DNA of 63,639 nt, counting the filler, from Folioceros fuciformis (taxonomy: Eukaryota), in NCBI GenBank assembly GCA_049999805.1. It is 10 parts of 10 records of this genome, joined end to end, with 100 filler letters (N's around TTAATTAATTAA, not from the genome) between each part and the next. Parts side by side here need not be neighbours in the genome. Positions count along the whole stretch, not along the records: positions 16,706 to 34,872 come from JBNGIO010001563.1; 9 more parts are not named here. One strand, 5' to 3'. A program made the translations under genes and the position numbers. The notes beneath the pieces are model-generated. The model saw only the letters and a program-made list of their open reading frames with translations. It was not told the origin of the DNA and did not search any database. Positions 1-48,200 of this stretch are shown one piece after another; within the stretch, counting starts at the first letter, position 1; every line of letters starts with the position of its first letter.

Positions 1-148
1 GGGGAGGGATCTCCTGCCCTGACTCAAGATCGAAACTTGCAGCAGTTCCGATCCTGTAGTGGCATTGGCAGGCTGCACCCCAGCAGCTCACGAGAAGCCT
101 AGCTGGATCTGCATCCGTCCGTCGTGATCTCCAGCACCTGGTGTCGAC
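1..148. repeat. Dispersed repeat, near-identical to 55433-55579
   Basis: Both copies read ...gactcaagatc(g/a)aaacttgcagcagttccgatcctg...gcatccgtccgtcgtgatctccagcacctggtgtcga with scattered substitutions. Confidence 0.9.
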
Positions 149-325
149 AACTGTGGAGACCACATGGTAGATAGGCCTCTTAGAAAATGGGTGGTATTTG
201 TTTTTTTTGGAGTTTTGATAGAATTCCTTGGAGAGGTAATTAGGAAACTATGTTAGATAAGGCTAGATTAAATAGGATATCATGAGATAGTGGTGGTGCA
301 GTTTAGAAAGTCAACAATCGTCTAG

Positions 326-9428: not shown

Positions 9429-10069
9429 NNNNNNNNNNNNNNNNNNNNNNNNNNNNNNNNNNNNNNNNNNNNTTAATTAATTAANNNNNNNNNNNNNNNN
9501 NNNNNNNNNNNNNNNNNNNNNNNNNNNNCTCTCATTGTTTTAACGTCCTTCGTGCTTAAACGTATAGAAAGAAGCAAGGGAAAACAATCTTTTGAACGAA
9601 AAAGAAATGACTATACCGTACCAACGAGTCCAAAAAGATGTCCGTTTCGTCCTCTGGTAGATCAAAGCATTCCTAGCACATAGACGCACTGTCTGATCAG
9701 GTTGAAAGACAGAGATCTGCGAGTTCGAAGCACATGTGTATGCATATCGATTGTTCAGAACGTGGGACAGGGTTGGACATTTTGAAGACCCTGTTTACCC
9801 GCGGTCGGTCGGCCTGCAGCAGGGGTCCACACGTCTAGAAAGCACCGTCGTATATGGCAGAAGCAAGCTGTGTTTGGATCTGGGCCAGCTGTCCAAAACA
9901 AGGATGACTTGTTGTCTGATAACCACAACCAGCTGATCAGCTCCTGGATCTTGGTTGTATACTCGCAGCTGGTCTAACACCACGACTCCTCCAGGGCCCG
10001 AGACGCTGTGACCCGATCCTTAAAGACATAAGTCAACTCAAAAGTAGAATCTCAAGTCCTGAGCCTAAA

Positions 10070-12403: not shown

Positions 12404-14287
12404 ATGGCGACCTGCCTACGGATTGCCTTCGATTTGGACGCCGAACTTCTCCGATATCCAGCTGCAGTTCTGTGGCTGCTAGGCGCGCCGTGGCAGCCGC
12501 TCCTGATTTTGGCACCTTTGCGCTGTCAGCACTTCCTTGCACCTCTGGTCCCGGACGTGAGTGCTGAGGTTGAGGAATTGCGAGTTCTGGTGCCCTCAGG
12601 ATTGGAGGTGGTGGGCGCTCTGGTGGTAGGCGGATCGGAAGCAGATGATACACTTCGGAGAGCTGCCAAGGCGGCCTTGAGCATCAGGGCCAAGCTGGGA
12701 TTACGGGAGGGCAGCCCTAGCCATGTAGTCGCTGGATTCGGCTCCAGGATCGGGGAACGGTGGAATTTCGTCCACAGATTGTATGATGCCGGACTGGCTT
12801 CGGTTGTCGACTGTTTGCAGGTTTTGAATGGTGGTGGCAATTTGGGAGATGAATTTTGGAAGGCTACACGGCTTCTGCGGTGCCAGATGCAGCTCAATCT
12901 GGATTTGTACCTTCCAGACGCTTGTAGTGCGTCAGACTACGATGAGCAGGTTGGTAAAGCGCTGACAGAGGTTGTAGCAGATCTGAAGAGTGGGAGAACT
13001 CTTTTTTTGATTGAGAATTTCCCGCAGGGAGGGAATGTGCTGGTTGAACCACATAAGTATCAAGGGTCCGCGGGGCTTGATGGTGGGAAGGAGGACCCAG
13101 TACGGAATAGCCACGACAGCATCCCATACTTTGGCTCAGGCCAGGTGGTCACGGTTGGCTCTGGTGTTAGGGTATCTGTGCCGGTGTCTTTCACTCCGCT
13201 TATAAGGCAAAGCAGTGCTGGAAAGAAGATTGAGGCCCCTCTCTTGCAGTACCTGCCAGCGAGAGGTACCGTGACGTTGCTGCCTTTGAACCTGGACTTG
13301 CTTTGTGTGGAGAGCGTTGGTGCTTTGCTGTCTCATGCAGTGGCTGAGCTAGTGCTGCCTGCATTGTGCAACCAGCTGGTGGCTATGCAGAAGGTATGTG
13401 CAAGAAACGCCATGCTGAATCCCAAGGTCGCTGCCTACCACTTCTGGCCAGAGGGCTTTCTGCATCCAGTGACTGGCTTGTACGATTTGAGCTACGGGGA
13501 AACTGAGCTGGGGCAAGTGGAACAGAGGAAGAAGCTGCATGAGCGGCTTGGGTTGCCTTCGGACAGGCCCTTACTTCGTGTGGCAAATGCCCTGGACTTC
13601 ACTGTTCCCGATGCCGTTCGATCCTCCAGAGCCACGCGATTGAGAGATGTTCATGCAGCTGCGACGGCCTCTCCTGTGAAAGGCGGGACCAAGAGTTTTG
13701 TCCAAGGCTCATATGAGTACTTCCATTACCTTCAGGATCATATTGATGACAACGGGTGGGGCTGTGCGTATCGTTCATTGCAAACTATAGTCTCCTGGTT
13801 TAAGTTGCAGCAGTATACATCTCTTGACGTTCCCTCGCACCGAGAAATACAGGAGATTCTAGTGGATATTGGAGATAAGGAGCGTTCCTTTGTTGGGTCG
13901 AGGGAATGGATCGGGGCCATTGAGCTAAGTTTTGTTCTCGATAAGCTTCTAGGTGTCTCTTCAAAGATACTGAATGTGAACTCGGGGGCAGAACTTCCAG
14001 AAAAGTGCAGGGAGTTGGCGTTGCATTTTAAGACTCAGGGAACGCCTATCATGATAGGTGGGGGTGTGCTTGCCTACACACTGTTGGGGATCGACTTCAA
14101 CGAGTTCACTGGGGAAAGTGCCTTTCTCATATTGGATCCCCACTACACCGGAGGAGATGATTGGAAGCCCATCATCAGTGGGGGATGGTGTGGATGGAAG
14201 AAGGCTGTGTCGGACTCGGGTGAGGAGTTTTTCTTGCGGAACAAGTTTTACAACCTTTTGCTTCCTCAGCGCCCTATTACTGTATGA
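12404..14287 (+). CDS. UFSP: Ufm1-specific protease (peptidase C78), single exon
   Basis: 627-aa ORF with YFHYLQDHIDDNGWGCAYRSLQTIVSW (catalytic Cys) and LILDPHYTG (Asp/His). Confidence 0.95.
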   Translation: MATCLRIAFDLDAELLRYPAAVLWLLGAPWQPLLILAPLRCQHFLAPLVPDVSAEVEELRVLVPSGLEVVGALVVGGSEADDTLRRAAKAALSIRAKLGLREGSPSHVVAGFGSRIGERWNFVHRLYDAGLASVVDCLQVLNGGGNLGDEFWKATRLLRCQMQLNLDLYLPDACSASDYDEQVGKALTEVVADLKSGRTLFLIENFPQGGNVLVEPHKYQGSAGLDGGKEDPVRNSHDSIPYFGSGQVVTVGSGVRVSVPVSFTPLIRQSSAGKKIEAPLLQYLPARGTVTLLPLNLDLLCVESVGALLSHAVAELVLPALCNQLVAMQKVCARNAMLNPKVAAYHFWPEGFLHPVTGLYDLSYGETELGQVEQRKKLHERLGLPSDRPLLRVANALDFTVPDAVRSSRATRLRDVHAAATASPVKGGTKSFVQGSYEYFHYLQDHIDDNGWGCAYRSLQTIVSWFKLQQYTSLDVPSHREIQEILVDIGDKERSFVGSREWIGAIELSFVLDKLLGVSSKILNVNSGAELPEKCRELALHFKTQGTPIMIGGGVLAYTLLGIDFNEFTGESAFLILDPHYTGGDDWKPIISGGWCGWKKAVSDSGEEFFLRNKFYNLLLPQRPITV

Positions 14288-22631: not shown

Positions 22632-23111
22632 ATGGCGGGTCGCATGGCTGCAATCCGGAAGGCTTTGGTCAGCCGTCACCACTCTGTTGCTCTCGCAGAA
22701 TTGCGTGCAGCAGAGTATCCTAGTTCCCGCGCTTTTCCGGCACCGCCTCTGCCTCAGTTGCCGCCGCAGCTGGCGTGGGCATGTCGTCTCCATCCGAGAA
22801 ACATGACAGATCACCCTGTTCTGCCACCTCCCGAGCCAGCGCCGCCTCCAGTTAATCCTGCGGAAGGCTACAATCCGCCTGAGAAGGAGATCCCGGACCC
22901 TGTTACCTTGGCGGAGCAGTGGCAGTATGCGATCAGGTTGTATAGCACGTTTAGCTCTCAGTCCTGGGCCCTGGCGATCCTCGCAGGATTGTCCACCTTT
23001 GCACTAGGCTGGGCAATCAAGGGCATCAACCCCCTGTCTTCTGGTGCAGGGAAGGATCCTGACCATGAGCATCAGGATGGGGAGAAACACCCTTCACAAG
23101 TTCCGGAGTAA
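22632..23111 (+). CDS. Conserved small plant membrane protein with a putative N-terminal targeting peptide
   Basis: Arg/Ala-rich N-terminus, then PDPVTLAEQWQYAIRLYS...WALAILAGLSTFALGWAIKGINPL, containing one hydrophobic segment. Confidence 0.7.
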   Translation: MAGRMAAIRKALVSRHHSVALAELRAAEYPSSRAFPAPPLPQLPPQLAWACRLHPRNMTDHPVLPPPEPAPPPVNPAEGYNPPEKEIPDPVTLAEQWQYAIRLYSTFSSQSWALAILAGLSTFALGWAIKGINPLSSGAGKDPDHEHQDGEKHPSQVPE

Positions 23112-23549
23112 CTTGTAACATCACCTTCTGCCTGTCATTCGTGGCCGTCACATGAGAGTGTCACATCAAAGATCACCGCAATGAGTTTACAACGGAATCG
23201 GAGAAGGAGGGTGCGCTGTGGGGGAACTCACAAGCTGTGTCCGAGATGACGGACGACTCTCCTCACATTTCAAAGGTTTCGATGGAATGCGATGATAAAA
23301 CCTTCATATTTGGGCAAATTGTGCTCTTTGCACCTACAGCCAGTTTCCTCTCCCCAGTATTCATGGCTTCCTTAGCATGGTCTGTAGGTCGTCATAACTT
23401 CCAAAGTCATCTTTGCTCTAGGACTACAAAATCGTGAAGGCCAGCAAAACAGTTTTTGCCCCTTGCGGACCAGCCTTCTGCTTGCTACTGCATCCTAGCT
23501 ATCAAATGGCACCTCAGCCTACAAAACTCAAGACTTTTCAGAACTGCCG

Positions 23550-24976
<1,427 letters not shown>

Positions 24977-25345
24977 CTTGAAGGAGCTCCGGATGCGGAC
25001 ACAAGCACAAGGACAAGGACACCTCCGATCCTCCTTGGCCTCCGTGAAGTGATAACAATCCCAAACAAAGTGACCGGAAAAGGCCTAGGTCTAGGTCACG
25101 TTTGGTGTCGGTAGGTGTGTGTCTAGGTCACACGTATCAACTTGAGCTAGGGTTAATTTTTCCTACATTAGCTACTTGGAAATATGATGGAGCAATAAGC
25201 AATATGCACTTGAATTTCATTGATGGCACAGCAAACAAAGCAAATCAGAGCTTGCAAAGTATATACGGACCAACATTTAAAAAAAAAAAATTATATATAT
25301 AAGTATTATAAAAATAGAACACCTAGTTTCTCGACCAAATATTCA

Positions 25346-25472
25346 ATATTATGTTATGATAAGCATTAGTTATTATTGATACTAGATGTTGTATTATAGT
25401 AAGTGTTAGTTATTATTGATACCCAATATTATGTTATGATAAGTGTTACTTAGTTAGTTAGTTAGTTAGTTA
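25346..25472. repeat. About 3 copies of a ~41-bp AT-rich tandem unit, plus a (TTAG)n microsatellite
   Basis: atattatgttatgataag...tattattgatac is reiterated and followed by ttagttagttagttagtt. Confidence 0.75.
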
Positions 25473-25594
25473 TAAATCGTAGCATACTTGTGTTTGAAGT
25501 ATTGTACATCTTTTTGAATTTTCTATCCTAAATATTTTTTTAATATTATTATTATTATAAAAATATATAATTGAATATGATATGGTAATCATTG

Positions 25595-25716
25595 TGAGCA
25601 TTGTGAGAATCGAACTCACGCCTCTAGGGTGTATTAGGAGGACTAGGAATTATGTACAACTAGTAATCCTCATAAATTACAAGAGCCCTAACATCCTACC
25701 ACTAGACCAAATGCCC
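25595..25716 (-). tRNA. Non-canonical intron-containing tRNA-like gene, copy 1 (apparent anticodon CTT; 49-nt insert at 25631-25679)
   Basis: GGGCATT-TG-GTCT-AGTGGTA-GGAT-G-TTAGGG-CT-CTT-G-[49 nt]-A-CCCTAG-AGGC-GTGAG-TTCGATT-CTCAC-AATGCTC-A. A and B boxes are intact and a T-run lies downstream. Amino-acid identity is uncertain. Confidence 0.75.
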
Positions 25717-26379
25717 ATTACTATGTTATGATAGATATTAACTATTACTGTATATGGTATCATACTTGTGCTTGGACCATTTTACATATTTTTTGATTGT
25801 CCAAGCACAAGAAAGGTTAACAATGCGTATAATCCTTGAAATATATATAGTCAATAAACACAAGACCTACAAAGGTTAGTGATGAGGTTAGTGATGAGGC
25901 TCCACATTAAAATAACACAAGGACTCATCATGTATTGAAAAGGGAGACAAGCTACTATACCGATTTGTTGGTGCCTTAACAACATAGTATGGAGTTGCAA
26001 AGCATAGAATATGCAAGCTCCTTCCTAAATTGATGTCTAACTTTTGAGTGGAGATGTGAATCCCAAAGAGCAGAGCTACTTGGGAGCTTGAAGTGTTTTG
26101 GATGTTATTTTTTTGATGTTATTTTCTATGTATAGCAGTAGATGTGTGAGAGCCCATAAGATTTAGCCTCTCTTTGTGGGGGAGAATGAAACTCCCACAC
26201 TAAGAGGCATAGGATCAGCCATCAACTTCCTCAGCCATGTAGAGATGCATGAAGCTTATAAATATGTATATATATATAGCTCACAGAAGGAAGAACTACA
26301 TAGGATCTCTTGTTGGTGGAGTGTTTAACACATCTATGAGTCTATTCTTGTATATATTATTTAAAAGTAATAATATATA

Positions 26380-26496
26380 TGAGCATTGTGAGAATCGAAC
26401 TCACGTCTTTAGGGTGAGGGTGAAGGATTAGGATTTTGATTATATTTCCCCATTGAATATGAGAGCCCTAATGTCCTACCACTAGACCAAATGCTC
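26380..26496 (-). tRNA. Non-canonical intron-containing tRNA-like gene, copy 2 (apparent anticodon CTC; 44-nt insert at 26416-26459)
   Basis: GAGCATT-TG-GTCT-AGTGGTA-GGAC-A-TTAGGG-CT-CTC-A-[44 nt]-A-CCCTAA-AGAC-GTGAG-TTCGATT-CTCAC-AATGCTC-A. All stems pair and TTTT lies downstream. Confidence 0.78.
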
Positions 26497-27040
26497 AATG
26501 CTGTATTAAGATGAGTGCTAGCTTACTTATATTTTATATCGTCCACAATTATTAGGCATTTTACATATTTTCTAAGAAATGGAGTTTACATCAGAATAAA
26601 TTTCCAGATTCCTGAAGACATTTTTCGATACTACCTGTTAGGCTCCACTTGGAGCTTATAACTGTATTTTTTAACACCCCTTTTTGGTATTAAACTTTAG
26701 GTTCCAGGTACAACTTTATTTCTTTTCTTTTCTGGAAAATGCTCCTTTTTCCCCGAAGTTTGGGGCCATGTTGTCGCTTTCCCAGGCGGTCTGACTTCGT
26801 CTTAGTCTTTCCAGGCTTCACATGCATGCCCTCGGACATGCGACGGGTTACATACAGTATGCCATTCCCACCATCTCCAAATCCGCTTTGGCGTTTGTCA
26901 GGAACCCGTTTCCTCGGACCCATTGCGGCATTTCGAACTCGAATATGAGCAGGACCTTGGCCCACTTGTTCAGGCTTCCAAGGTCATACCGTCTTCCCGG
27001 CCTACAAAATCGTACGGGCGAGCAAAACACGTAGGTTCCA

Positions 27041-30000
27041 CTACTGGCGGGGCAGTCTACCGTATTCACCCAGAAGGGTATGCAGTCTCTTCGCCTCAGG
27101 CTGAAGATTCTTGAACGTAGTTGACTCGCCAACTCGCCAACCCCAATTTCCCGCCTGCAGGGTGAAGTTAGTTAGCCGGGGAGATTAGCCCCAAGACCTT
27201 CAGGTTTAAGCTAACAGATAACTAATACAGCTTCCTGGAAATTTGCAGGAATACCTGGACAGCAGGGATGTTCATTCTGGCGGAGTTATCCAGACCCATC
27301 ACATCCTGCATAGGAATGACTGTCGTTCTTGCCACGGACGCCAGACAGGCCCTGATGAACTCCCAAGAAATATCCTCATCTCCTTCGAATCGGAGGTAGT
27401 GTCTCACCTGTGATATGTTTCAAAAGAACCATCAGTAAGCCAGGACCATTCCAATCTCGCAAGCAGAAAGGGAAAACGAACGAGTCGCACACCGTCCCAA
27501 CGTACCCTGTCCTTCTCTGCTGCCGGCGCTGCATGCCACCACCCAAGGGACTGTCACAAAGAACGAACGTATCTGTGTGAGCTGCGTTGCAACGTTGCGC
27601 GTAATAAAGCTTAGGGATGGTGGTGAGGATAAGTCAAGGACCGTATCGTTGTCATGTGTTCCCGGGTACACAACTTGATCCACTTCGTGATTGTGAGGCA
27701 GGTGAGGATTCTTGGCGTCACTTCCGAAAGCTGTCACGACACAATCGAATGAAGATAGGTAAGGAGATCGAAACCAACGAAGACGACGTACATCCACCAT
27801 GCAAGAAGCCGTACCAAATTGCAAGACAGCCATCCCAGGAGCTCCGATAGCTTTCCTCAGCTCCACAACGTCCCTGGTTATGATTCCCTGATTCCCCAAA
27901 TGCTGGGCGTTAACCAACGACGTAACAAGGGGTAGCGACCCAAAGCTGATCCGCTTAAATTTCTTACGGCATACCAGGTCCTCCGCAATGATGTCTATCT
28001 TCCCGACTGCTGCCTTGATAGCATTGAAGAAACCTTCTCGTGGGCCCACCTGCAAAGCGTTCAATCACAAGACATCAGCTCTCAAGTGTGAAGGGTGCCT
28101 GGCATGTTATTCATCTCACAAGGCCAGAAACAGTGGCGCAGATGTTTGCCTTCCAGGTCCCCTTCATCGCTGTTTCCGCATCTGCACGAAACGATGCACA
28201 CCAAGAGCAAATGATGCACATCAGAAAACCAGGGGTGCAACATTCAGTCAAGTGGAAGAACCGGCTGAAAAATTGCAAAGCAATCCGAATAAAATTCTCA
28301 CCAGCAGGTATAGCCCAATAGCCTGCAAGACCCCGGAAGTGGTCAATACGGAATTCATCGTACAGCTCGAAAGCTCGTCGCATACGCTTAGCCCACCATG
28401 CATATCCATCTTTTGACATCGCTTGCCAGTTGTAAAGTGGGCTGGAAGCGTTAACAAATGGCACGAGATTTCAACAGAGGGAAGGGCAAGTACACATTCG
28501 AGAGAGACAACTGGACATGGAAAACGAAAAATGCTGTCATCGCATGAGGCAGGTTGCACAAGCCAACCTCCCCCAGAGTTGACCAGTTGCGCTAAATGCA
28601 TCTGGAGGAACGCCACTAACAAGGGCAGGCACTCCTGTTGTTTTATCCTGGTGAGATAATGAACATTTCATATGATGAGAAACTGTACAACAACACTAAA
28701 TATCTTGCAGAGTTGAACAAATGGTAAATATAATATCCTCACCAGCATGAACTGAGCTCGATTTGCCCACACATCTGCACTGTGACCTCCCACATATATC
28801 GGCATATCTCCAATGATTTTGATGCCTTTTGAGTTAGCATACTTGTGCAACGCCTGCCACTGCTTTTGAAACAGAAACTGTTGTGCAATGAAGTTGTCGA
28901 TCTGCATGACATCACATGAGACAACCGAAATTCAGTATGTGAAAGTAGTTACTGTGTTAAATTCAAATTCAAATTCCCTGGTTTAGTAGGAGGTAAGGAA
29001 CGAAGCTAACGAATTGCTTGTGCTCTTTCCGAGCTCTTTCCAAAGCAGACCCATTTCTGTCTCGAAGCTCCACCGGCCAATCCCACCAGAAGCGAGCATC
29101 AATGCTATGATCTATAGCAGCGAAAAGAGCAGCCTCCTCCAGCCAGGCTAAAAGCCACATCACAGTAAAAATAGGTCACAAAACTCGAACAAAACCTACA
29201 TTAAAAAAAAAAATACAAAAGACTTGAGCCTGGTACCTGATATTCTAGGATTCTTTCTAAATTTCTCCATCTCATCCTGCAAGGGACCTTTCGTCCCACT
29301 CACAAGTTTCTTTGCAGCCTGGACCACCACACACACAACCGTTAGCAGACCTTTCACCAACCACTGAACCTAGAGCTCTTGAGATAGCTTGCAGGGATAT
29401 TTGAGTGCAACGGTCGACAACCAGAAATCAGCTCCATGACCGAACGAAGCGCAAAGGCATACCTTGGCTATGAGTGGGTCCTTTAACTCTGCCACAGCTA
29501 CATAATCCACTCGCTCCACAGGCCTGATTCAACACGTTCAGTTAGAAGGATCCAAAAAAACTATGCCAACACCGACAGTGCACAGATCATAGTCCACGTA
29601 CGAAACATCCAAGAACCAAAAGGCACACCAGGCATGAATCTTACACGGCACCGGGAAGATCAGACTTATCTAGGAGGCCATCCTTCACCAGCTCCTCAAG
29701 GGAGATCAGCAGAGTATTCCCACAGTTGGCATCCTGAAGTGGTTGGTGTCAACGATTGAAAAGAAATATCACCAAACGAACATGACATTCAGTCACAGGT
29801 AGGCAGGCAGAAGCCACTCACAGCTCCTGAGTATGGGGATCCGTCTTCACCAGATTTCCTTCCTGGTGGTACAAGGGGAAGAACCTGAACATTCCACAGC
29901 AGCGATTCTCAGAGTCCAGGTATTACATGCTAGTGTGCTTCGCAGAAATTTCTGGCATTGCATGAAAAGGAGAACATGCCTCCACCTATACTAGGCTTTG

Positions 30001-31022
30001 AAACAACGGCCCTCCCTCCTGAACAAGGCAAACCTTCGGGTTCAAACGAAATGCATTCATCCTGCGAACGGGTGCATTTGCTAGGGGAAGCAGCCTGACT
30101 CATTGTGCAGCCACGGCATGAGCATGCTTGACAAAATGCATGTACGGCAAACAGCTCAAAAAGGAAGAAGGGACCATACTTGCCAGACGGTGCAGCCAGT
30201 GGACTTGAGCCAGTCCAAAAATACGTATGCCTCGTGACCCAGTTCCCCAATTCCATATTTGCCAGGCAGGGACGTGGGATGCAGCAGAATCCCAGCCCTT
30301 CTTTGCGGAGCAGTCTTGTTGGGATCATCGTTGACGTAATCGGCAGGAAGATCGTCCCCAGCCTGAACCTTCTTCTGCGGGGCCAGAGCCATGGTCGGAG
30401 AGGCAGCAGCACCCCGGGCCCTGACCTCCCTGCCCTGCAATATGGACGCAGCAGGCAACTTCCCTTCCCTGCCACACGAAAACGGCTTCCCTCTGATAAC
30501 CTGAGATCCCAGGAGACCACGGGCACCAGAATTGTGGACACATTTGTCGAGTTGCGTCACTCTTGCGCCAGCGGCGGAGCGCCGTTGTTCGCACTGGCAG
30601 AAAGTGGGGCCCGATACCAGCGAGCTAGTCCCATGCTGCCATGTCCTCCCATCGGAGTTGTGCAGCTTTTCGAATCTGTAGGATAGCTCCTCCGACAGCC
30701 TTTTGACGTAGGCGCGCTTGGCTGTAGCAGCGCCGCACGTGGACGCCGATGCCGCACTGCTCCAGGGGCTGGGGCACCTGGCGGATCGGCAGTAGATGGC
30801 CTGCTGCACCCTCCGCACTTGGCTGCATGTTCTGGGTGTAACGACGTTCAAACAAGTGTTTGGCGGCCTGGTGCAAGGGCATTCATTGCAGGACTCGGTT
30901 GCAGAGCGCGACATCCATATAGCTCTGCCGGAAAAGCCGTCTCTATCCGCACAAGGCGAGCACAGCCGGACGGCTGGAGCAGCCGTGGTAAACATTTGCC
31001 TAGTCAGCCCGTCGAAGGACAT
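27041..31022 (-). CDS. DPE1: Plastid 4-alpha-glucanotransferase (D-enzyme, GH77); multi-exon, start uncertain
   Basis: RRAGILLHPTSLPGKYGIGELG, IGDMPIYVGGHSADVWAN, FRIDHFRG, IIAEDLG, YPGTHDNDT, ARMNIPA and GNWGWR. Stop TAG at 27041-27043. Confidence 0.95.
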
Positions 31023-34972: not shown

Positions 34973-36593
34973 CATACTCTCCCCCATTGTCTGTCCTTAG
35001 ACACTTCAGTCGGAGGCCAGACTAATTCTCCACAAGGGTGACGAATTTCTGAAACACGACCAGAACATCATCCTTTTTCCTCAAAGGATAAACCCACACC
35101 TTGTGTGAGAAATCATCTATGAAAGTGGCAAAATAGGATGCCGTTACACAAATCACATGATCCTTGACAGTGGTTACCTGAAAGTGAGTACAAAGTGCCA
35201 CACTTCGATCCACGAGCTAACACAAGAGAACCTTTGGAGATCTTCCAAGAACGATCTCCAAACCAACAGTGGTAGCCAGCGTCATCCAACTACCCTGCGC
35301 TAATCATGCTTTTGGTCAACTTCGGAACATGCCTAACATCCTTCAGTACGAATGAAGATCCATTGTCGAACTTCAGCTGCACATCACCAATGCCTGCAAT
35401 CTTGCATGTGTAGTTATTTCCAAGCCGAACACATCCTTTCCTAGTAGCATCATAAGTGCTAAACCACTCTCTATGTTGAGTCACATGAAAAGATGCTCCA
35501 GAGTCAATTATCCAATTAGAGAAAAAGTGAGTTTCCACGGCTGTCAGTTGTGCAGAATCGAAAGAAGAAGAGGTAAGAACATCTCCATCATCAACAGAGT
35601 TCACCTCGTCACGCTTGACACTCGGACTTGCTTTGTTGTCTCTTTGCTTCTTCTCCTTTCCTTTGTCCTTTTTGAACTTCTCGCAGTCCCTTCTGATGTG
35701 ACCCTTCTTGTGACAAAGGTAACACTCAACATTGTTACGACTACGAGACTTACTATGGGAACGACTTCGCTCCTTGTACTTCCGCTTTGAAGTGGACCTT
35801 CCTCTAACCATGAGGGCATTGGAACCTTTCAAAGGTTCCATGTTCTTCCTATTCACCTCCTTTGTTAACAGGCTACCTTCTACATTTACAATGGTAAGAC
35901 CACTGGCAAGAGCGGAATTACTCAGAGCTAGATGAAAGGTGTCCCAACTCTGTGGTAATGTGACCAACACAAACATGCACCGCCGGGGCCTGGCACTCTG
36001 GCCTGGCCGACTGCGCCTGCCCGCCCCCCACGAGCTTGGCGGCATGGCGCCCTCCTAGAGCCCCGGCGGCCTGTCCGCTGCAGCTGCCCGTGCCCTTCTG
36101 TGCCCTCTATGGGGTAGCACCCCGAGCTGCGATGTGGCACAATGGCGCCCTCCTCGGTGCGCCGCGTTGCTAGGCTGTGCACACCGCCATGTGCGCGAAC
36201 AAGGTAACAGCGCCTTGACCAGGCTTCACACTCCACTCCTGCATAACACACACCTTGTTGCTCCACAAAACCAAGCTCCACAGCCTAGCTCTAATACCAC
36301 TTGTAGGATCGCTACAGGAGCTACATGGTGAAGAAGGAGAGGAGGAGGCAAGGAGGAGGAGAAAGAGAGGTCACACTCTCACAATGAGTCTCTCTATATG
36401 CAAGGGAGCTCAAGGGGGTATTTATACCCTCTAGAAGAGCTCCCTAGGAAGCTTCACAAGAAGCGCACAGGAAGCTGCGCAAGAAGCTTCCTACAGATTA
36501 GCTTAAGCTAATCTAAACTAATGATACTTAACTAGACACTATTCTTAGACTAAACACATTAGTCTAAGCACATTGGGCTTTAATAACCCTACA
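34973..36593 (-). mobile_element. Ty1/copia element, internally deleted: LTR 36302-36593, PBS 36288-36299, gag/protease/integrase remnants
   Basis: TG...CA LTR followed by TGGTATTAGAGC (Met-i PBS). Zinc knuckle CYLCHKKGHIRRDC, protease WIIDSGAS, integrase FIDDFSHKVWVY. Confidence 0.9.
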
Positions 36594-38008
36594 CATAGCA
36601 GCCTGATTTCGTAGCTGCTCTAACAGATAGCAGGTTCTTGGACATAGCAGGTATGTACAAAACGCCTTCAAGCTGTATATCCTCACCTTCCAGCAATGAA
36701 ATGGTAATTGTTCCTGAACCCTTCACAACTACACCTCTCGCATCCCCCACATACACTAACTGAGGTGATTTTTGTGATGTGAAGGTGGAGAATAGACTCT
36801 GATTATTGCACACATGTGATGTAGCACCAGAATCCATGAACCAAGCAAAAGAAGAATCCCTGGTGGATGTGAAGCAGACTATAAGAACAGTAGAGCTACT
36901 CTTACGAGAAGAGGTTGCAGAGCCCTTGTCCTTTGCAGCGACATGAGCCTTTGACTGAACCTCCTTTTTTGGCTCTCCAGCTTTCTTTTTACGACAATCT
37001 CTCCTCCCAATGTCCATGCAGTTGACACCAATGAAAATTTCCTTGTCTCTTGGTAAGCGAATCTCCTGTACCACCAGGTATCTTCTTACCTTTGCTCTTC
37101 ATAAATGGTTTCCCTCTGGCAGCAAATAACACCTTCTCACTCCTAGCTTTTTGATGCTGTCCCCCAAGTCTTTGGGGGGACTATTCTTCTTGAAAGAGTG
37201 CAACAGTCAGTTTGCTGAATGTAAGTGTTTGTGCCTGCCCAACGGAGACTGTAGCCACAGAAAATCTCAAGGCAGCATCCTGGGTTGAAACAAAACTCTG
37301 ATAGGAGGGAGGAAGGCTGGACACCAGCTAAGCAATTGCCTCGTTCTCAGTAAGTACACTGCCCAAAGAAGCTAGTTGAGCTCTTAACACCCTGAAGCGG
37401 CTGATATGTACAGCAACATAATCACCTTCCTTCATCCTCAAAGAGTGGAATTCATTCCTAGCAGTAACCAGAGTAAGGAGATTCTGCACCTAATAAGTTT
37501 CTTTGAGCCGATTCCACATTGCTGCTGCAGACTCTAAGTATTCAACTTCTGTCACCGTGGCTTCATCTAGGCCAGATAGAAGAATAGCAAAAGCAATTTT
37601 GTTGCCTTTGTTCCACATAGTAATCTCATCAGCAGTTGGTTGGACTGGGGCTAATGCTGGAGTCTTGCGAGGATCAGGCAGAGTACCATTAACGTACTCC
37701 CACACATCCCGCGCATCCAAGTAGGCCTTCATCCGAGCTCGCCAACTCTCATATTTGGTTGGTTTTCCATCAAACCGATCCTTTTCTTTGAACTCTCCTC
37801 CATAGCCACCAGGAACAGCAATAGGAACAGAAGAAGACACAGACGTGTTAGCCATGACTGCAGCTAACGGAGGTTGTGATACCTGACTTGCCACTGTGAC
37901 TTGTGAAGAACGGGATACAAAGCCTACATCCTCAACATAGTCTGATGCTAAGACTAGGCGGGCTAAAGACTCGGACAAGGAATCAAGATCTAAGTCATCC
38001 TCATCCAT
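36594..38008 (-). mobile_element. Degenerate Ty1/copia gag-protease interrupted by the LTR at 36593
   Basis: KYESWRARMKAYLDARDVWEYV (gag), WFMDSGATSH (protease) and KNLLSV; contains stops and a frameshift. Confidence 0.88.
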
Positions 38009-42010: not shown

Positions 42011-42698
42011 TGCTGCTAAACCCCATGTTGCTAAACCATAAACCCATTTTGCTCCGCCATGCCACTAAATGTAAACCCCTGTTGCTCTATCATGCAGGTA
42101 AACCCTAAATCTTAATTGTTTGCTCCATCATGTTGCTATTCCATTCTCATATGCTATGTCATTCCTACAACCCTCTTACCCTACCCCTACACCACTCATA
42201 CTATTGTTGTATATTGCTCCTATAGCATACTATCACATCGCTCATTCCCCTTCTATGGGAGATCAATCATATTGCCTCTCTTGCGCCCATTTCTCCATGC
42301 CGCTCTCCTCTACAACACTTCTACACTCATTGCTCAACATCCCTCCACTCTACACCCACACCTCTTCCTTGTTTCACACTCCTCCACCACACTCCACCCT
42401 ATTGCTCCACATCGAACTGTGATATGCTTTTTATTGAATAGAAGATCTCGAAGAGTTCATTATAGTAAATACTTGGATATATGGATTAAATCATATCTTA
42501 TTTGTTCAATGGCCCAAAGCTATGCTTTTCAACGTTTTACAATCTTGAGATTGCACAACTAATTCTATTTCAAAAGCTCTTCTAATATTGTATTATATNN
42601 NNNNNNNNNNNNNNNNNNNNNNNNNNNNNNNNNNNNNNNNNNTTAATTAATTAANNNNNNNNNNNNNNNNNNNNNNNNNNNNNNNNNNNNNNNNNNNN

Positions 42699-43016
42699 CG
42701 GGGAGGCGTGAAAGCTAACATTTTTGAGGATACGCGGGCCTGCAGTCCGGGCCTCCGGGTCCGGCTCTCCTTCATACGCCTGGTTGTTGTGTACGCTCAG
42801 CGCCGTAGCCCTCGCCAGCGATTTCTGTGTCTCGGCTATCCTGCTTAGCAGGCGCGGGAGGATGCCAAATTGTCGGCGCGTGTAGCTCAGGTCTGTGACG
42901 CTGATGTTGAAGGTGGGCGTGCCACTGGGCGGGACGACTGTCACTACTGTAGCATTGCCATCCCCATCGCCTTGTTGCTTCCCCATGGACGCTGCGCAAG
43001 GAGGAGTCCCGTCCAT
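42699..43016 (-). CDS. N-terminal fragment of an ABCG transporter, cut by the contig end
   Basis: FNISVTDLSY...RILKNVSFHASP, the segment that precedes Walker A in ABCG half-transporters. Confidence 0.65.
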
Positions 43017-43982: not shown

Positions 43983-44225
43983 TCACATTCTATGGTAGGG
44001 CACTATCTTGCGACTTAGGAACACTCCTAATGTACATGTTCATATATCATACTCCTACAACATATTAATATGCACCAAGAGTTGTGCCTTACTACACAGT
44101 AGATGAGGAGACAGTAGGATTAGGAGACGAGTTAAGCGTGTGAGACAAGGTTATATTTTCTTTTATGGTTGGAATATTGTGAGGGGATTCACCACCAATT
44201 GGAAAGGGCTCGTCTACAATTCAAT

Positions 44226-44999
44226 ATGTCGTCGATCACATTTCAAGGACCTAGCTATTCTATCTCTCATTGGTATTTCACAAGGGAGCAGATAGAGTGC
44301 AATTCCCCCTCCAGAAAGGACAATATTAATTTGGAGAGAGAGACCTATTTCCGGAAATCCTATTGCGACTTTTTGCGACATCTTGGCAAGCAATTGAAAC
44401 TGCCCCACAATGCTATCGCATCAGCCATAGTTTTCTGTCATAGATTTTTCCTCCGCCAATCACATTTAAAGAATAATAGACTTACAGTTGCTACTATTTG
44501 CATGTTTCTGGCCACCAAAGTTGAGGGTGTCCAACGTGGTGTTGTTGAGGTAATTCGTTGTAGTTATCCATTACGATTTAAGGGTGATGAAAGTGCTCTG
44601 GAGCGGATGAAGTTGAAGCAAGAACAGGTGATTGAGGAGCAAAAGCAACTTATTTTGTGTGGTGAGCACCTCGTATTAAAAACTTTGAATTTTGACCTAG
44701 AAATTCATCATCCGTACAAGCCACTTTTAACTGCAAGCAAGATGTTAAAAGTATCAGATTACAATCGCATCCGACTAGTCCAATTAGCTTGGAACTTTGT
44801 GACTGATGCGTTGTGTACATCACTTCCAATGCAATTTGAACCTCATCACATTGCAGTTGGGGCAATCTTTCTTGCAGCAAAGTTCCTTAAGATTGATCTA
44901 TCCATTAATAGTGAACACCGACTTTGGTGGCATGGATTTAATGTCACCTTACGACAATTAAACGAAGTGAGTAATCAAGTCCTAGAAGTCTATGAATAA
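44226..44999 (+). CDS. CYCT1: Cyclin T1-like protein, intronless and lacking the C-terminal tail (probable retrocopy)
   Basis: WYFTREQIECNSPSRKD, ASAIVFCHRFFLRQSH, TLNFDLEIHHPYKPL, AWNFVTDALCTSL and PHHIAVGAIFLAAKFLK. The frame stops right after the second cyclin fold. Confidence 0.88.
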   Translation: MSSITFQGPSYSISHWYFTREQIECNSPSRKDNINLERETYFRKSYCDFLRHLGKQLKLPHNAIASAIVFCHRFFLRQSHLKNNRLTVATICMFLATKVEGVQRGVVEVIRCSYPLRFKGDESALERMKLKQEQVIEEQKQLILCGEHLVLKTLNFDLEIHHPYKPLLTASKMLKVSDYNRIRLVQLAWNFVTDALCTSLPMQFEPHHIAVGAIFLAAKFLKIDLSINSEHRLWWHGFNVTLRQLNEVSNQVLEVYE

Positions 45000-45269: not shown

Positions 45270-48200
45270 CATATTGACAACATAGTCTGGCTTCCATTCA
45301 TCTATTGGACGACGAGCTCTTGTTGAGCGACGAAGAGGAGGGTCGACGGGTTTATCTTCTGCAATGGCAGGACCAGCAACAGTGGGTGAGAGCACTAGTT
45401 CAACAACTTCATCATCAGCAATGCAGGAACTTCAATAGGATGAGTAGCTTCTGCTAAAACTGAATCTTCAGATGGGTGGTTTTGCACAGCAGATGAAGCT
45501 CGCTATGCAGACTGTGCTGGTGCTGGCTTGGGCTGCTAAATGGAGCTCCCCCTTGAACCCAGAGGCTCCTCATCGTCGTCATAGGTGGTCAAGGAAAGAG
45601 AATCAAGGGGCTCATCAATTTGAACACCATAAATCGAGGAAGAAACCTCAGTAGGTGTATGCACCAATTGCAAGTGGCGTTGAAGAAGGGCATTCTCGTT
45701 AAAAACTACGCTTCGTGAAATAGTCAGTGAGCGGGAATCAGGATCAAAAAGCTTATAGCCCTTCCCATCATCGGAATAGCCAACAAAGATACGTCGATGT
45801 GCCTTGGGATCTAGCTTGGTACGCAACTCAGAGGGAATAAAAGCATATGCAGGTGAGCCAAACACTTGTAGGTGAGAAATGCGAAGTTTCTTGCTTGTCC
45901 ATCTTTCATATGGTGTGATTGATCCCAACTCCTTCGTAGGCAGCCGATTCTGGATGTAGTTGGTAGCCATGAGGGCCTCCACCCAATAACCACGAGTGAG
46001 GCCAGCAAAAAGTAAACTCGCCAAGGTGGCCTCCTGCAGTGTTCTGTTCTTCCGCTCAGCAAAGGAGTTTTGTGCTGGAGTGTAGGGCACAGTGAATGGA
46101 TGATGAATCCCTTCAGCTTCGCAAAAATCCTGGAAAGCTCGGCTGGTATACTCACCACCGTTGTCTGTGCGAAGAATCTTCATACGGGCACCAGTATGCC
46201 TTTGTGCATACCTCATAAGAGACTAGAAGCACTCAAGGGCTTCACTCTTGTGCTTGAGCAAATATATGGTGCAGTATCCGCTCCACTCATCTACAAATGT
46301 GATAAAATATGATGCACCTCCAAACGAAGCCGTCAATATGAGGCCACAGATGTCACTATGAATTGTTTCAAGAACTGCTCTTGCACGGGTAAGGTGCTTG
46401 TCCCGGTAAGCCAAGGAATGTGCCTTGCTCACATGAGTCACAGAAAGGGCTAGACTCTGGGATGAAGTTGAGGGTATCTCTAAAACTACCACTATGAGCT
46501 AGAGACGGCAATTTCTGAAAATTAACATGGCCAAGGTGATAGTGCCAGAGATGCATGGTGGGTTTTGCCTGGAGGGCATGTGCAGATGGAATGGTAGGAG
46601 GTTCCAAAGTTAAGACATCAAGCATGTACAAGTCATTATATGGGTGGCCAGAAAACAACTTGTGATTGAAGTTGGGGCTAAATATATGACAACCTGTGTG
46701 GTCGAAGCAGACTTGACACAAGTGTTCTTGGGTGAGTTTGTAAACAGACATGAGGTTCTTCGTCATAGTTGGGACATAGAGTACTCCTGATACGGTGAGA
46801 CTCCCATGCCCAGGTAGTTGTATCATGACACAATCTGTGCCCTTTATTGATAAACCACTATCATCACCTAACAGCACAAACTGCTTATCATCTTTAGAGG
46901 GAACAAAAGATGAGAAGGCACGCTTGTCTAGACATATGTGACTTGTAGCATCTGAATCTAGAAACCACTTATCTTGCTGGACAGTGACAGAATTCACACA
47001 AACAGCAAGTATTGAAGGCGACTTGACTCTGCCCACGGCTACATTGGACTCTGGAAGAGCTGACTCCTTTCTGGGTTCACCATTGCTCTTCTTTCTGCAG
47101 TCCCTCTCATAATGCCCTGGTATTTTACACCAAATGCATATTAAAGTTTTCTTCTGGAAGTTGGGCAGCCTTGATGAAGGTGGATTGAACGAGCCTCTTC
47201 CACGACCTCGTCCACGATATCCTCCATGCCCACGTGAGGCAAATAGCACCCGATTGCTGTTGTTGCTTGTAGAGCCTCTATTCTTATGAAGAGTCCTTGA
47301 CCTTTCTTCCACCAAGAGTGCTCCAAGGACTTCCTCCAAGGTAACAGTAGGCATGCTCCCAGCTGTTGCTGCCTGAACTGCTGCTCGAATAGTTGCATTT
47401 TGTGAACTCACCTATTGTCCGTAGGCGTCTGGCAGAGAAGCAAGAAGGCTTACAGTAGCCTGAGCTTCTGTTAAAACAGTGCTACAACAAGCCAAGTTAG
47501 CCCTCAAGGTCCTAAACTTGTGTATATAGCTCTCGACGGGCTTAGAGTTCTTCATCCGCAAGTTGAAAAAATCACGGTATGCATGCACCATCGAGGCTGA
47601 GCTTTTGTCTTCATAAATGAGTTTGAATGCCTTCCACACAACATTAGAGGTGGCTGCACCTATTGTATGAGGCATCATAGTTCTATCCAGGGAGGCAATC
47701 AATATTGATCGAGCCCTCCTATCCTTCCACTGCCAAGCTAGGACATTTTCTGGTGGGGATGCAGGACAGGCTTCTGAGCCGTCTACAACGCCCATCAACT
47801 TATCCTCATCAAAGATCTGCGTTAGTCTCATGGACCAAATAGCATAATTGGTCCCATTAAACCTGTCTTTGTCCCTGAACTCTATTTTGAGAGGAACTAC
47901 ACTACGAGTTGCTGTGAGGATAGGGGCAAGAGTGCCACCTGACATATTTGCTAAGACAGTGTTACTCACCAACCTAAACTGCGACCTACGCTCGAGAAGC
48001 AACCTAGACTGCACTGCCTGAGGAGAGAAATCAAAAAGTGAGTAATCCACAAACTCGATGTCAAAATCGTGAAAAAGAAAAGGCAAATCAGCAGTGTTGT
48101 CCTCCTCAGGTTGCATACGACATGGATTCTAAGAGTATTGAAGAACAATGCCCAAACATTGAGACCTGTTTGTCAAGACTCAAAGCAGAAAGATGATCCA

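Follow-up and report, generated by a model that had tools for sequence, protein, structure and literature searches.

Among standard tRNAs, a 6-bp anticodon stem is found in tRNA-Sec. The available sections of PMC13578239 report that land plants have lost tRNA-Sec and, together with the accessible part of PMC3531208, describe the nuclear tRNA introns of land plants as short and confined, in curated sets, to Tyr and elongator Met. Rare predicted intron-bearing plant tDNAs go beyond Met and Tyr, with Lys and Glu among them and introns of 3–261 bp (PMC11700998 and PMC12652284, in the portions available), and curated surveys treat such predictions as rare oddities. A plant tRNA look-alike is described in the accessible text of PMC6152437: the Arabidopsis GUT15 tRNA-like RNA is stable, CCA-tailed and possibly charged, has canonical acceptor, D and T arms, and has a non-canonical anticodon region that cannot form a 5-bp stem and 7-nt loop. 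Its source is a Pol II lncRNA intron; it is not Pol III-transcribable and has a disrupted A box. The Helenus elements (TRIMp3), in the sections of PMC10886601 that were available, are non-autonomous LTR retrotransposons whose LTRs each carry a tRNA-like sequence, and the one plant in which they are reported there is Selaginella moellendorffii.

The two tRNA-like genes of Folioceros fuciformis described here (copies A and B) share features with each of these systems. As in GUT15 (compared by its description in the available text), the acceptor, D and T arms are canonical and the anticodon region is not; unlike GUT15, both copies have an undisrupted A-box segment and T-runs, and neither shows a host transcript. 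The 6-bp anticodon stem is shared with tRNA-Sec, and possibly an upstream promoter element is too, whereas the variable region is 4 nt rather than a long arm, the acceptor and T stems are 7/5 rather than 9/4, and the anticodon is not UCA. Two co-oriented tRNA-like copies lying a few hundred bp apart, with isotype calls that misfit the body, recall Helenus as it is presented in the available part of PMC10886601.

Two co-oriented tRNA-like copies and their structure

The window, that is the whole 63,639-nucleotide stretch analysed, contains copy A (122 nt) at 25595..25716 and copy B (117 nt) at 26380..26496, both on the minus strand. An earlier note had placed the two cloverleaves correctly, though they lie on the minus strand; its spacing of ~780 bp and its co-orientation agree with the start-to-start distance of 780. 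Each copy was recovered with the Rfam tRNA model, with ARAGORN when introns were allowed (-i), and with R1, our own covariance model. Copy A comprises a 5′ part (25716-25680), an insert of 49 nt (25679-25631) and a 3′ part (25630-25595); copy B likewise comprises a 5′ part (26496-26460), an insert of 44 nt (26459-26416) and a 3′ part (26415-26380). Scoring with Rfam, which the earlier note had proposed, gave 47.3 bits for copy A and 55.2 bits for copy B with RF00005, both above the gathering score of 29 and over the full model (1-71 of 71). ARAGORN made no call at either copy under default settings; with -i it called copy A as Lys(ctt), with the apparent anticodon CTT at 25683-25681 and an intron of 49 nt, and copy B as Glu(ctc), with CTC at 26463-26461 and an intron of 44 nt, the same insert sizes as those originally given. 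R1 scored 147 bits at copy A and 139 bits at copy B. Within the window, a 21-nt string of the 5′ part and a 23-nt string of the 3′ part have exactly two occurrences apiece, where 100 shuffles predict 0; the likeness of the halves of A and B is therefore not due to chance. The surroundings of the pair are an AT-rich intergenic stretch with tandem repeats.

In both copies the acceptor (7 bp), D (4 bp), anticodon (6 bp) and T (5 bp) stems are 100% paired, and all 27 pairs of the cloverleaf with its 6-bp anticodon stem and 5-bp insert helix form in A and B. Five pairs differ between the copies on one side only, with pairing kept, two of them in the insert helix and three in the tRNA stems (A/B: acceptor stem G-U/A-U, D stem G-U/G-C, anticodon stem U-G/U-A); the claim that differences within the stems preserve pairing holds for all three. 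Double-sided, compensatory changes number 0/27, because only two sequences were compared, and a pairing shuffle control is uninformative for such a two-sequence comparison. Direct reading in tRNA numbering finds U8, A14, G18-G19, A21, G53, T54-T55-C56, A58 and C61 in both copies; the variable region has 4 nt in each, and the discriminator is A.

The anticodon-arm stem is TTAGGG/CCCTAR in both copies, with all six of the pairs previously proposed, and is equivalent to one extra nucleotide, with 2 nt between the D and anticodon stems. Measured against a canonical decoding tRNA, whose 5-bp stem follows a single nucleotide and whose 7-nt loop carries U33 and a purine at 37, both registers are non-canonical. 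Read with 6 bp, the loop of both copies retains U33 and a purine at 37; read with 5 bp, it has C33 and a pyrimidine at 37, and the anticodon becomes TCT. The apparent anticodons differ between the copies (CTT versus CTC), and in copy A G37 follows U36. When the insert was removed in silico, copy B took a cloverleaf as its minimum-energy fold, with 6 bp in the anticodon stem and U33 and A37 in a 7-nt loop; the minimum-energy fold of copy A was not a cloverleaf.

For comparison with known intron-bearing tRNA genes, an environmental metagenome was scanned for the A-box and B-box letters separated by a 55–85-nt gap, which yielded 32 loci. Of these, 25 read as intron-bearing tRNA-Pro with the same 12-nt A-box and 13-nt B-box letters and were used as controls; they are non-independent and represent ~7 distinct genes. 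ARAGORN called tRNA-Pro for 22/32 loci, all 22 among the controls. The A and B boxes of the copies are intact, as had been noted, with letters identical to those of the tRNA-Pro-like loci, although the search pattern itself demanded this identity. The Pro-like body of the earlier note stands only in part: in the A-box and T-loop the letters agree with those of environmental tRNA-Pro, whereas the NGG anticodon of tRNA-Pro is absent (CTT/CTC, or TCT in the other register), the discriminator is A rather than C, and the 3′ halves match those of the tRNA-Pro loci at 14–17 of 25 positions. With intron-bearing tRNA-Pro(CGG/AGG), whose introns measure 29–52 nt, the copies share the cloverleaf, the 12-nt A-box/D-loop letters, the 13-nt B-box/T-loop letters, the T-run and, within the anticodon loop, an insert of comparable length. 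Besides the discriminator, they differ from canonical intron-bearing tRNA-Pro in the 6-bp stem or extra nucleotide and in the missing 32:I-3 pair. Their isotype lies outside the land-plant Tyr/elongator Met intron rule as given in the available sections of PMC13578239.

Insert, unequal divergence and flanking elements

The anticodon-intron pair (32:I-3) was not found in A or B in either register, while position 32 pairs with intron base -3 in 25/25 control loci; the usual C32:intron pair is absent, as had been stated. Only 1/4 of the central-helix pairs form in each copy in both registers, against at least 3/4 in all controls. Eukaryotic tRNA endonucleases also measure distance from the tRNA body, and some cleavage without the 32:I-3 pair is conceivable. 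ARAGORN, in its own numbering, puts the insert at 37-38 of A and at 39-40 of B, a placement that shifts with the counting of the extra nucleotide. The inserts are largely divergent, as described before, with 29/49 alignment columns alike, yet still homologous, as only 5/1000 shuffles scored equally well; on this alignment, both descend from a single ancestral insert and have since diverged, and they do not represent different cargos. Their folds are not common to the copies: the insert arm of A forms a long hairpin (-18.4 kcal/mol), and that of B is nearly open (-8.1). Inspection of the insert by eye found no C/D-box guide. The motif CCCTAAA in B raised the idea of a telomerase template; with these letters base-paired in the stem, and an RNA much too short for that role, the idea was dropped.

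Divergence between the copies is strongly uneven. The tRNA-like parts match at 66/73 positions, and the 7 differences are all transitions. By comparison, 64/108 columns (59%) are alike in the upstream 100 nt, and the downstream 100 nt is at random level (794/1000 shuffles score as well). The tRNA-like, or exon, parts differ significantly in conservation from the insert (Fisher p = 9e-5) and from the upstream flank (p = 3e-6). Transitions and transversions number 7:0 in the tRNA-like parts, 6:9 in the insert and 12:16 in the upstream flank (Fisher p = 0.0096), and the acceptor and anticodon stems carry 1 difference/14 nt and 1/12, respectively. With the tRNA-like parts nearly unchanged and the insert and flanks far more diverged, this one pairwise comparison indicates that selection acts on the tRNA shape of A and B, and the constrained body (66/73 versus 29/49 in the insert, transitions only) fits what a working tRNA-shaped RNA would be expected to show. 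Conserved bodies with fast-diverging flanks have been reported for transcribed tRNA genes (10.1101/229906, in the part available). Gene conversion confined to the two exon-like blocks is formally admissible as another source of the likeness.

A truncated, decayed third copy (copy C, minus strand, 25330..25378, direct-repeat family D1) serves as an internal control. It retains ~34 nt of the 5′ flank and then 15 nt from the start of the tRNA-like body (25344-25330), beyond which the likeness ends; its 49-nt stretch is 76% like copy A, and its tRNA part, only 11/15 alike, has decayed. Two further 40-nt tandem repeats of the 5′-flank/start region (D1 copies, minus strand, 25370..25458, 40-nt spacing) give way to a (TTAG)n run that extends to about 25472, and from their arrangement the repeats and the run are read as marking a local tandem duplication.

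Upstream of both copies, at a distance of about 61–77 nt, lies an identical 15-mer, AAAATATGTAAAATG, at 25778..25792 for copy A and 26557..26571 for copy B (both minus strand), within flanks that are 59% alike. Only these 2 matches occur in the window with up to 2 mismatches, against 0.29 expected, and the 15-mer is a candidate external promoter element. The downstream T-runs mentioned in the earlier note begin at +32 of A (TTTTT) and +14 of B (TTTT): these candidate Pol III terminators, both on the minus strand, are a T5 run 32–36 nt downstream of copy A (25559..25563) and a T4 run 14–17 nt downstream of copy B (26363..26366). A GH77 gene (4-alpha-glucanotransferase) lies upstream on the same strand as copy B. 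Contigs from a sequencing run guessed to be RNA cover 26552-26800, including the 15-mer of B, and stop 56 nt before B. Among other contigs, those of a DNA run cover the locus, one of them, 884 nt long, spanning all of B, and a 199-nt contig (25731-25936) from a further run stops before A; this coverage has no bearing on expression.

Copy number and relatives

A covariance-model search, as the earlier note had suggested, was run across the window with R1 and yielded A and B only; the next best matches, at most 18.8 bits, were on the antisense strand or noise, and a 15.9-bit match at 23231-23342 was read and dismissed. Rfam at E values up to 10 returned, within 23000-29000, only the two tRNA matches and two sub-threshold chance matches. 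The members visible in the window are two intact copies and a decayed remnant, which all sit within a single 1.2-kb locus. On this count, and with the shared ancestor of the inserts, the proposal of a family carrying variable cargo is not supported as it was worded. The anticodon-arm stem of the family occurred in 0/32 environmental loci, and a family-specific 19-mer gave 0 matches in viral contigs. A literature search found no description of the element, and the intron-bearing tDNA tables of PMC12652284 (S3, S6) and PMC11700998 (Supplementary Table 3) may hold similar genes. In an exact-string search of the literature, two family-specific strings were absent; an 18-nt 5′ string occurs in one paper.

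Likely product and competing explanations

Copies A and B are probably not ordinary decoding tRNAs, because of the 6-bp stem or extra nucleotide, the differing anticodons and the insert without anticodon-intron pairing; the earlier judgement that these are not ordinary tRNA genes held up against controls that show this pairing in 25/25 cases. The reading that we favour, at roughly even odds, makes A and B a small tandem cluster of tRNA-like genes that are of Pol III type and under selection, with a product other than a standard decoder. The copies would be old tandem duplicates of a tRNA-derived gene, each putatively transcribed from A and B boxes that would serve it as an internal Pol III promoter, up to a T-run terminator. 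Selection would preserve the acceptor, D and T arms and the 6-bp base of the anticodon arm, and the insert and flanks would drift. The insert would replace the anticodon loop, and because it lacks the pairing used by the tRNA splicing endonuclease it would probably be retained, so that the most likely product is a tRNA-shaped RNA of ~117–122 nt with a long, poorly conserved anticodon-arm extension. Its ends would be matured like those of a tRNA, presumably by RNase P and RNase Z, and its role may be that of a non-decoding tRNA look-alike rather than a Lys or Glu decoder. GUT15, as portrayed in the available text of PMC6152437, is adopted by analogy as a possible functional model. A further-reaching proposal, offered tentatively, is a lineage-specific class of selected Pol III tRNA-shaped RNAs in a non-seed streptophyte, with an unspliced, fast-evolving arm and a motif ~70 nt upstream that would aid expression, amounting to a small-RNA gene of a new kind. 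In a weaker variant, the copies would be the first tRNA genes with long introns and 6-bp stems outside Tyr/Met in a land-plant lineage, with non-standard splicing.

The pair suggests that some of the intron-bearing predictions beyond Tyr and Met are not plain decay, with a body under selection and an insert that drifts without splice signals. If expressed, the copies would represent a plant tRNA look-alike with its own Pol III promoter, while GUT15, the sole comparison here, is Pol II-derived, and they would offer a tractable case for what such RNAs do. For annotation, the pair is a warning against listing such loci among the Lys or Glu decoders.

Several explanations compete with that of a selected, non-decoding tRNA-like cluster. 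We consider it unlikely that A and B are working intron-containing tRNA genes, with B a tRNA-Glu(CUC), A an anticodon-shifted tRNA-Lys(CUU) duplicate, and a long spliced intron at or beside the canonical 37/38 position. ARAGORN -i makes exactly these calls, Rfam scores reach 47–55 bits, the tRNA body is constrained, insert-free B folds cleanly into a cloverleaf whose 7-nt loop, with U33 and A37, would also suit a genuine, if odd, tRNA-Glu-like gene, and rare Lys and Glu intron-bearing plant tDNA predictions exist in the portions available of PMC11700998 and PMC12652284. Against decoding, however, stand the 6-bp stem (or the additional nucleotide that separates the D stem from the anticodon stem), the lack of the 32:I-3 pair and of all but 1/4 central-helix pairs (25/25 controls have the pair), and G37 beside U36 in copy A, whose insert-free minimum-energy fold is not a cloverleaf. 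One body with two anticodons would also need two different synthetases, and curated land-plant introns are short and only in Tyr and elongator Met in the accessible sections of PMC13578239 and PMC3531208. Distinctly unlikely, too, are dead pseudogenes, that is, tandem tRNA duplicates with an insertion, whose likeness would stem from a recent duplication or from gene conversion and not from function. In favour of this, the anticodon region departs from the canonical form, decayed copy C adjoins, copy A has G-U for a Watson-Crick pair of B in three stems and scores lower, and the locus is AT-rich and intergenic, with tandem repeats. Neutral decay should nevertheless strike the tRNA parts equally, and these differ at 7/73 positions against at least 20/49 in the insert (p = 9e-5), by transitions only (p = 0.0096); conversion would have to hit two ~36-nt blocks and spare the 44–49 nt between them, and it is copy C, truly dead, that shows decay (11/15 alike).

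A mobile origin, with A and B as parts of one element, appears highly improbable. Its appeal lies in the co-oriented copies 780 bp apart, whose likeness extends over ~220 bp (-100 to the tRNA 3′ end), an LTR-like size, in a unit that begins near TG and has CA at its end; the window holds plenty of Copia elements, copy A lies between the two halves of a 13-of-14-nt direct repeat (at -48 and +3), and Helenus is known from the plant Selaginella moellendorffii in the accessible part of PMC10886601. The initiator-Met primer-binding-site motif, however, has 0 matches in 25300-26700 (4 in the window, at 36288, 39265, 48602 and 55239); direct reading of the sequence shows neither a polypurine tract nor a 5-bp target-site duplication round the pair, nor a SINE tail; and the longest flanking common word is 8 nt at A and 6 nt at B. 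LTRs of one insertion should diverge evenly, which A and B do not, and the lack of any sign of many copies also sets the pair apart from Helenus; an unbroken 884-nt DNA contig runs through B with no high-copy identical words evident, which is a weak point. The copies resemble tRNA-derived SINEs in their tRNA-like A and B boxes and in a Pol III terminator, here putative, that lies beyond them. Typical SINE heads do not keep the full 3′ acceptor strand and discriminator. Copies A and B retain both, and indeed the whole cloverleaf; after the 3′ acceptor strand comes only AT-rich flank, unlike between the copies, in place of a SINE body or tail. The A/B homology reaches ~100 nt upstream of the transcribed part, also unlike SINEs, and the SINE heads with tails and target-site duplications that the earlier note had considered find no counterpart here, with no SINE tail and no target-site duplication at B. 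Least probable of all is a unit acting at the DNA or precursor level, either a TFIIIC-bound boundary element between two Pol II genes or an RNase P-cut tRNA-like 3′-end or mobility signal of the 4-alpha-glucanotransferase mRNA. Copy B does lie on the GH77 strand, starting 56 nt past 26552, where the contigs of the run guessed to be RNA stop, and the boxes are intact. For an mRNA signal, these putative RNA contigs should end at the tRNA-like 5′ end, not 56 nt before it, and copy A, 780 nt on, has the same upstream motif without a neighbouring mRNA. A boundary element would need only the boxes, whereas the acceptor stem (1/14) and the anticodon stem (1/12) are equally kept.

Identity, architecture and setting of copies A and B

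Two tRNA-shaped elements, copy A (25716..25595, minus strand, 122 nt) and copy B (26496..26380, minus strand, 117 nt), matched the Rfam tRNA model end to end with 47.3 and 55.2 bits, respectively (gathering score 29), and accounted for all above-threshold matches in the 63.6-kb window. The alignments pass over 58 nt (A) and 53 nt (B) in the anticodon loop. Neither copy was called by ARAGORN under default settings; when introns were allowed, A was called as Lys(ctt) with a 49-nt intron and B as Glu(ctc) with a 44-nt intron, reproducing the insert lengths and anticodons of the earlier note. The copies lie 780 nt apart, start to start, and every detail of the co-oriented cloverleaf pair described there was borne out, the minus strand of both genes being the sole addition.

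Read on the minus strand, both copies contain a 7-bp acceptor stem, a 4-bp D stem with a 7-nt loop, a 4-nt variable region and a 5-bp T stem with the loop TTCGATT, as well as the 6-bp anticodon-arm stem (TTAGGG/CCCTAR) and the discriminator A that had been noted before. By direct reading, both have the full set of usual tertiary-interaction nucleotides. The previously observed T-runs were located downstream on the minus strand, at +32 of copy A (T5) and +14 of copy B (T4).

The setting is an AT-rich intergenic stretch, with a GC content of 47–51% in the exon-like parts (37 + 36 nt either side of each insert), 31–34% in the inserts and 15–29% in the flanks. The pair lies just downstream of a multi-exon 4-alpha-glucanotransferase (GH77) gene on the same strand (~26552-31022, minus). 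In a sequencing run guessed to be RNA, contigs over 26552-26800 correspond to the end of the GH77 gene and none covers the tRNA-like copies; these contigs stop at 26552, leaving 56 nt to the start of copy B. A DNA run spans the entire locus. Between A and B, two tandem units of ggttagtgatga form a 12-nt duplication at 25873-25898 (+). A 199-nt contig from a second organism is 90–95% alike over 25731-25936, without 12 letters at this duplication, so the spacer upstream of A is common to a relative.

Unequal divergence of the copies and their flanks

The tRNA-like parts of A and B match at 66 of 73 positions, compared with 29 of 49 columns in the insert (Fisher p = 9e-5; exon versus upstream flank, p = 3e-6). 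All seven exon-like differences are transitions, a significant excess (p = 0.0096); the insert differs by 6 transitions, 9 transversions and 5 gap columns and the upstream flank by 12 transitions and 16 transversions. Three of the seven fall in tRNA stems, where the pair is kept each time through a G-U intermediate, in agreement with the earlier note; two are at unpaired purine positions and two at loop positions 36 and 37. One gene-conversion tract cannot explain this pattern, because the diverged insert splits the conserved blocks. As only two sequences are compared, there are 0 double compensatory changes and a shuffle control on pairing carries no information; the case for constraint is one of unequal divergence, not covariation. 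Transcribed tRNA genes are reported to have conserved bodies and fast-changing adjacent flanks (10.1101/229906).

Likeness between A and B begins ~100 nt upstream and breaks off after the final base of the tRNA-like part. Of the 108 columns aligned for the upstream 100 nt, 64 are alike, a score matched by 2 of 1000 shuffles; for upstream positions 101–200 and for the downstream 100 nt, the score of the region concerned was matched by 509 and 794 of 1000 shuffles, respectively. Inside the diverged upstream flank, 61–76 nt before the 5' end, is a 15-mer, AAAATATGTAAAATG, identical in A and B and without another occurrence in the window at up to two mismatches. It is a candidate external promoter element, placed much as the upstream elements are in plant type-3 Pol III genes.

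A truncated third copy, C (25330-25378), of this small tandem cluster comprises 49 nt that are 76% like their counterpart in A, with the 5' flank kept and the tRNA-like body reduced to its first 15 nt, which have decayed (11/15 alike). A truncated copy does decay, as C shows. Before C come two tandem 40-nt repeats of its 5' flank, adjoined by a (TTAG)n microsatellite (25440-25480, +) that was flagged as a skipped repeat in read mapping. Searching the window with a covariance model of A and B returned no further copy.

The insert compared with canonical tRNA introns

Scanning metagenome contigs for the identical 12-nt A-box and 13-nt B-box letters spaced 55–85 nt apart yielded 32 loci. ARAGORN called 22 as tRNA-Pro with introns of 30–52 nt; three more were intron-bearing and read as Pro(AGG), but ARAGORN put their introns at another position and so miscalled them as Thr or Ile. 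One was a Val gene with an intron, and in six the pattern bridged two adjacent intron-less genes. The 25 environmental tRNA-Pro(CGG/AGG)-like loci have introns of 29–52 nt. The TTAGGG/CCCTAR stem was found in none of the 32 loci, which are therefore not members of the A/B family.

The Pro loci are good positive controls for intron pairing. In 25 of 25 loci, representing only ~7 distinct genes, position 32 is paired with the intron base third from the end, and the four following pairs are all formed in 8 loci and three of four in 17. In A and B just one of the four is formed, in the 6-bp/inner-5-bp register and the Rfam 5-bp register alike, and the 32:I-3 pair is absent, save that B has a G-U there in one of the two registers. 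The missing C32:intron-purine pair of the earlier note is confirmed against these controls, each of which has the pair and at least three of the four that follow.

With the outer stem enforced, the inserts gave no common fold: the A arm formed a long near-continuous hairpin (−18.4 kcal/mol), whereas the B arm was almost open (−8.1 kcal/mol). In the two sequences compared, a candidate 5-bp helix within the insert is kept in both copies with two one-sided changes, and RNAalifold favours a rival candidate pairing of the loop with the insert start. After in silico removal of the insert, B folded at minimum energy into a cloverleaf whose stem has 6 bp and whose loop has 7 nt; the minimum-energy fold of A was not a cloverleaf.

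Nature of the pair and other features of the window

In promoter layout and fold the pair is like a tRNA gene; tested as a canonical decoder, as carrying a canonical intron, or as tRNA-Pro, tRNA-Sec, SINE or Helenus, it failed each time. The 'Pro-like body' of the earlier note is only partly borne out: the box letters are those of environmental tRNA-Pro genes that look genuine, an identity which the scan pattern itself required, but the anticodon is not NGG and the discriminator is A, not the C of those genes. Together with the T-runs and the conserved L-shape scaffold, the box letters suggest that A and B would be transcribed by Pol III and processed at their ends like tRNA. A decoding role is disfavoured by the stem, which is non-canonical or has an extra nucleotide beside it, by apparent anticodons that differ between the copies (CTT versus CTC), by G37 following U36 in copy A and by the absent intron signature. 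The earlier note is thus supported in that these are not ordinary tRNA genes, but not in its proposed family with variable cargo: the window shows two intact copies and one decayed remnant, and the two inserts are diverged versions of one ancestral insert.

What is new is sequence evidence that the pair is under selection and that its insert is not intron-like. We give roughly even chances to selected tRNA look-alike genes whose product would keep, or poorly lose, the insert; the boldest reading, in which the pair would represent a novel class of functional Pol III RNAs, tRNA-shaped and specific to this lineage, is a tentative suggestion. The kind to which the pair belongs is already known, if loosely defined, as tRNA-derived look-alike genes or 'odd intron-bearing tDNA predictions'; no description of this pair was found in the literature searched. 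The closest plant precedent, the CCA-tailed tRNA-like RNA of the Arabidopsis GUT15 locus, combines an anticodon region that is non-canonical with acceptor, D and T arms of canonical form (PMC6152437); it is Pol II-derived, whereas A and B would probably be Pol III products.

Real, spliced Glu/Lys tRNA genes would agree with the ARAGORN calls, with the constraint on the tRNA-like parts and with plant surveys, in which predicted tDNA introns outside Met and Tyr are rare and reach 261 bp (PMC11700998 Table 2; PMC12652284). This reading is unlikely, as the stem geometry, the 32:I-3 pair of all 25 controls and the curated land-plant intron rule (as given in PMC13578239 section 9 and PMC3531208) conflict with it. 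That the copies are dead pseudogenes is quite unlikely given their unequal, transition-only divergence. The A/B geometry is also reminiscent of Helenus, a miniature LTR element whose LTRs each contain a tRNA-like sequence and which among plants is known only from Selaginella (PMC10886601). A mobile element is nevertheless improbable: no purine tract was found, neither the pair nor B alone showed a target-site duplication, even LTR-like divergence was not seen, and no initiator-Met primer-binding site lies near the pair. All four exact or near-exact motifs of this type in the window (36288, 39265, 48602 and 55239) are in its Copia part, where coding regions of Copia-type LTR retrotransposons (gag, integrase, RVT_2) occupy 49625-53899 (+), 56274-59519 (+), 45536-48116 (−) and 35290-38008 (−). 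A boundary element acting on the DNA level, or a signal for 3' processing of an mRNA, would leave the conserved acceptor and anticodon stems unexplained and is highly improbable.

Elsewhere in the window, positions 1-3000 (64% GC) contain long overlapping ORFs on both strands with proline/glycine-rich translations and look like low-complexity or repeat sequence, not genes. ORF translations run into X at ~9430-9476 and ~42651-42700, so the window holds runs of N, read as assembly gaps. An ORF at 44169-44999 (plus) encodes cyclin N-terminal and cyclin-T2-like C-terminal domains. A single uninterrupted 627-aa ORF (12404-14287, plus) encodes a Ufm1-specific protease 2 homologue, whose best named relatives, from liverworts, a moss and a lycophyte, share only 48–51% identity. 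This points to a streptophyte host, probably of a non-seed land-plant lineage with sparse coverage and no near sequenced relative in named databases. One unnamed Logan protein is 62% identical to the homologue.
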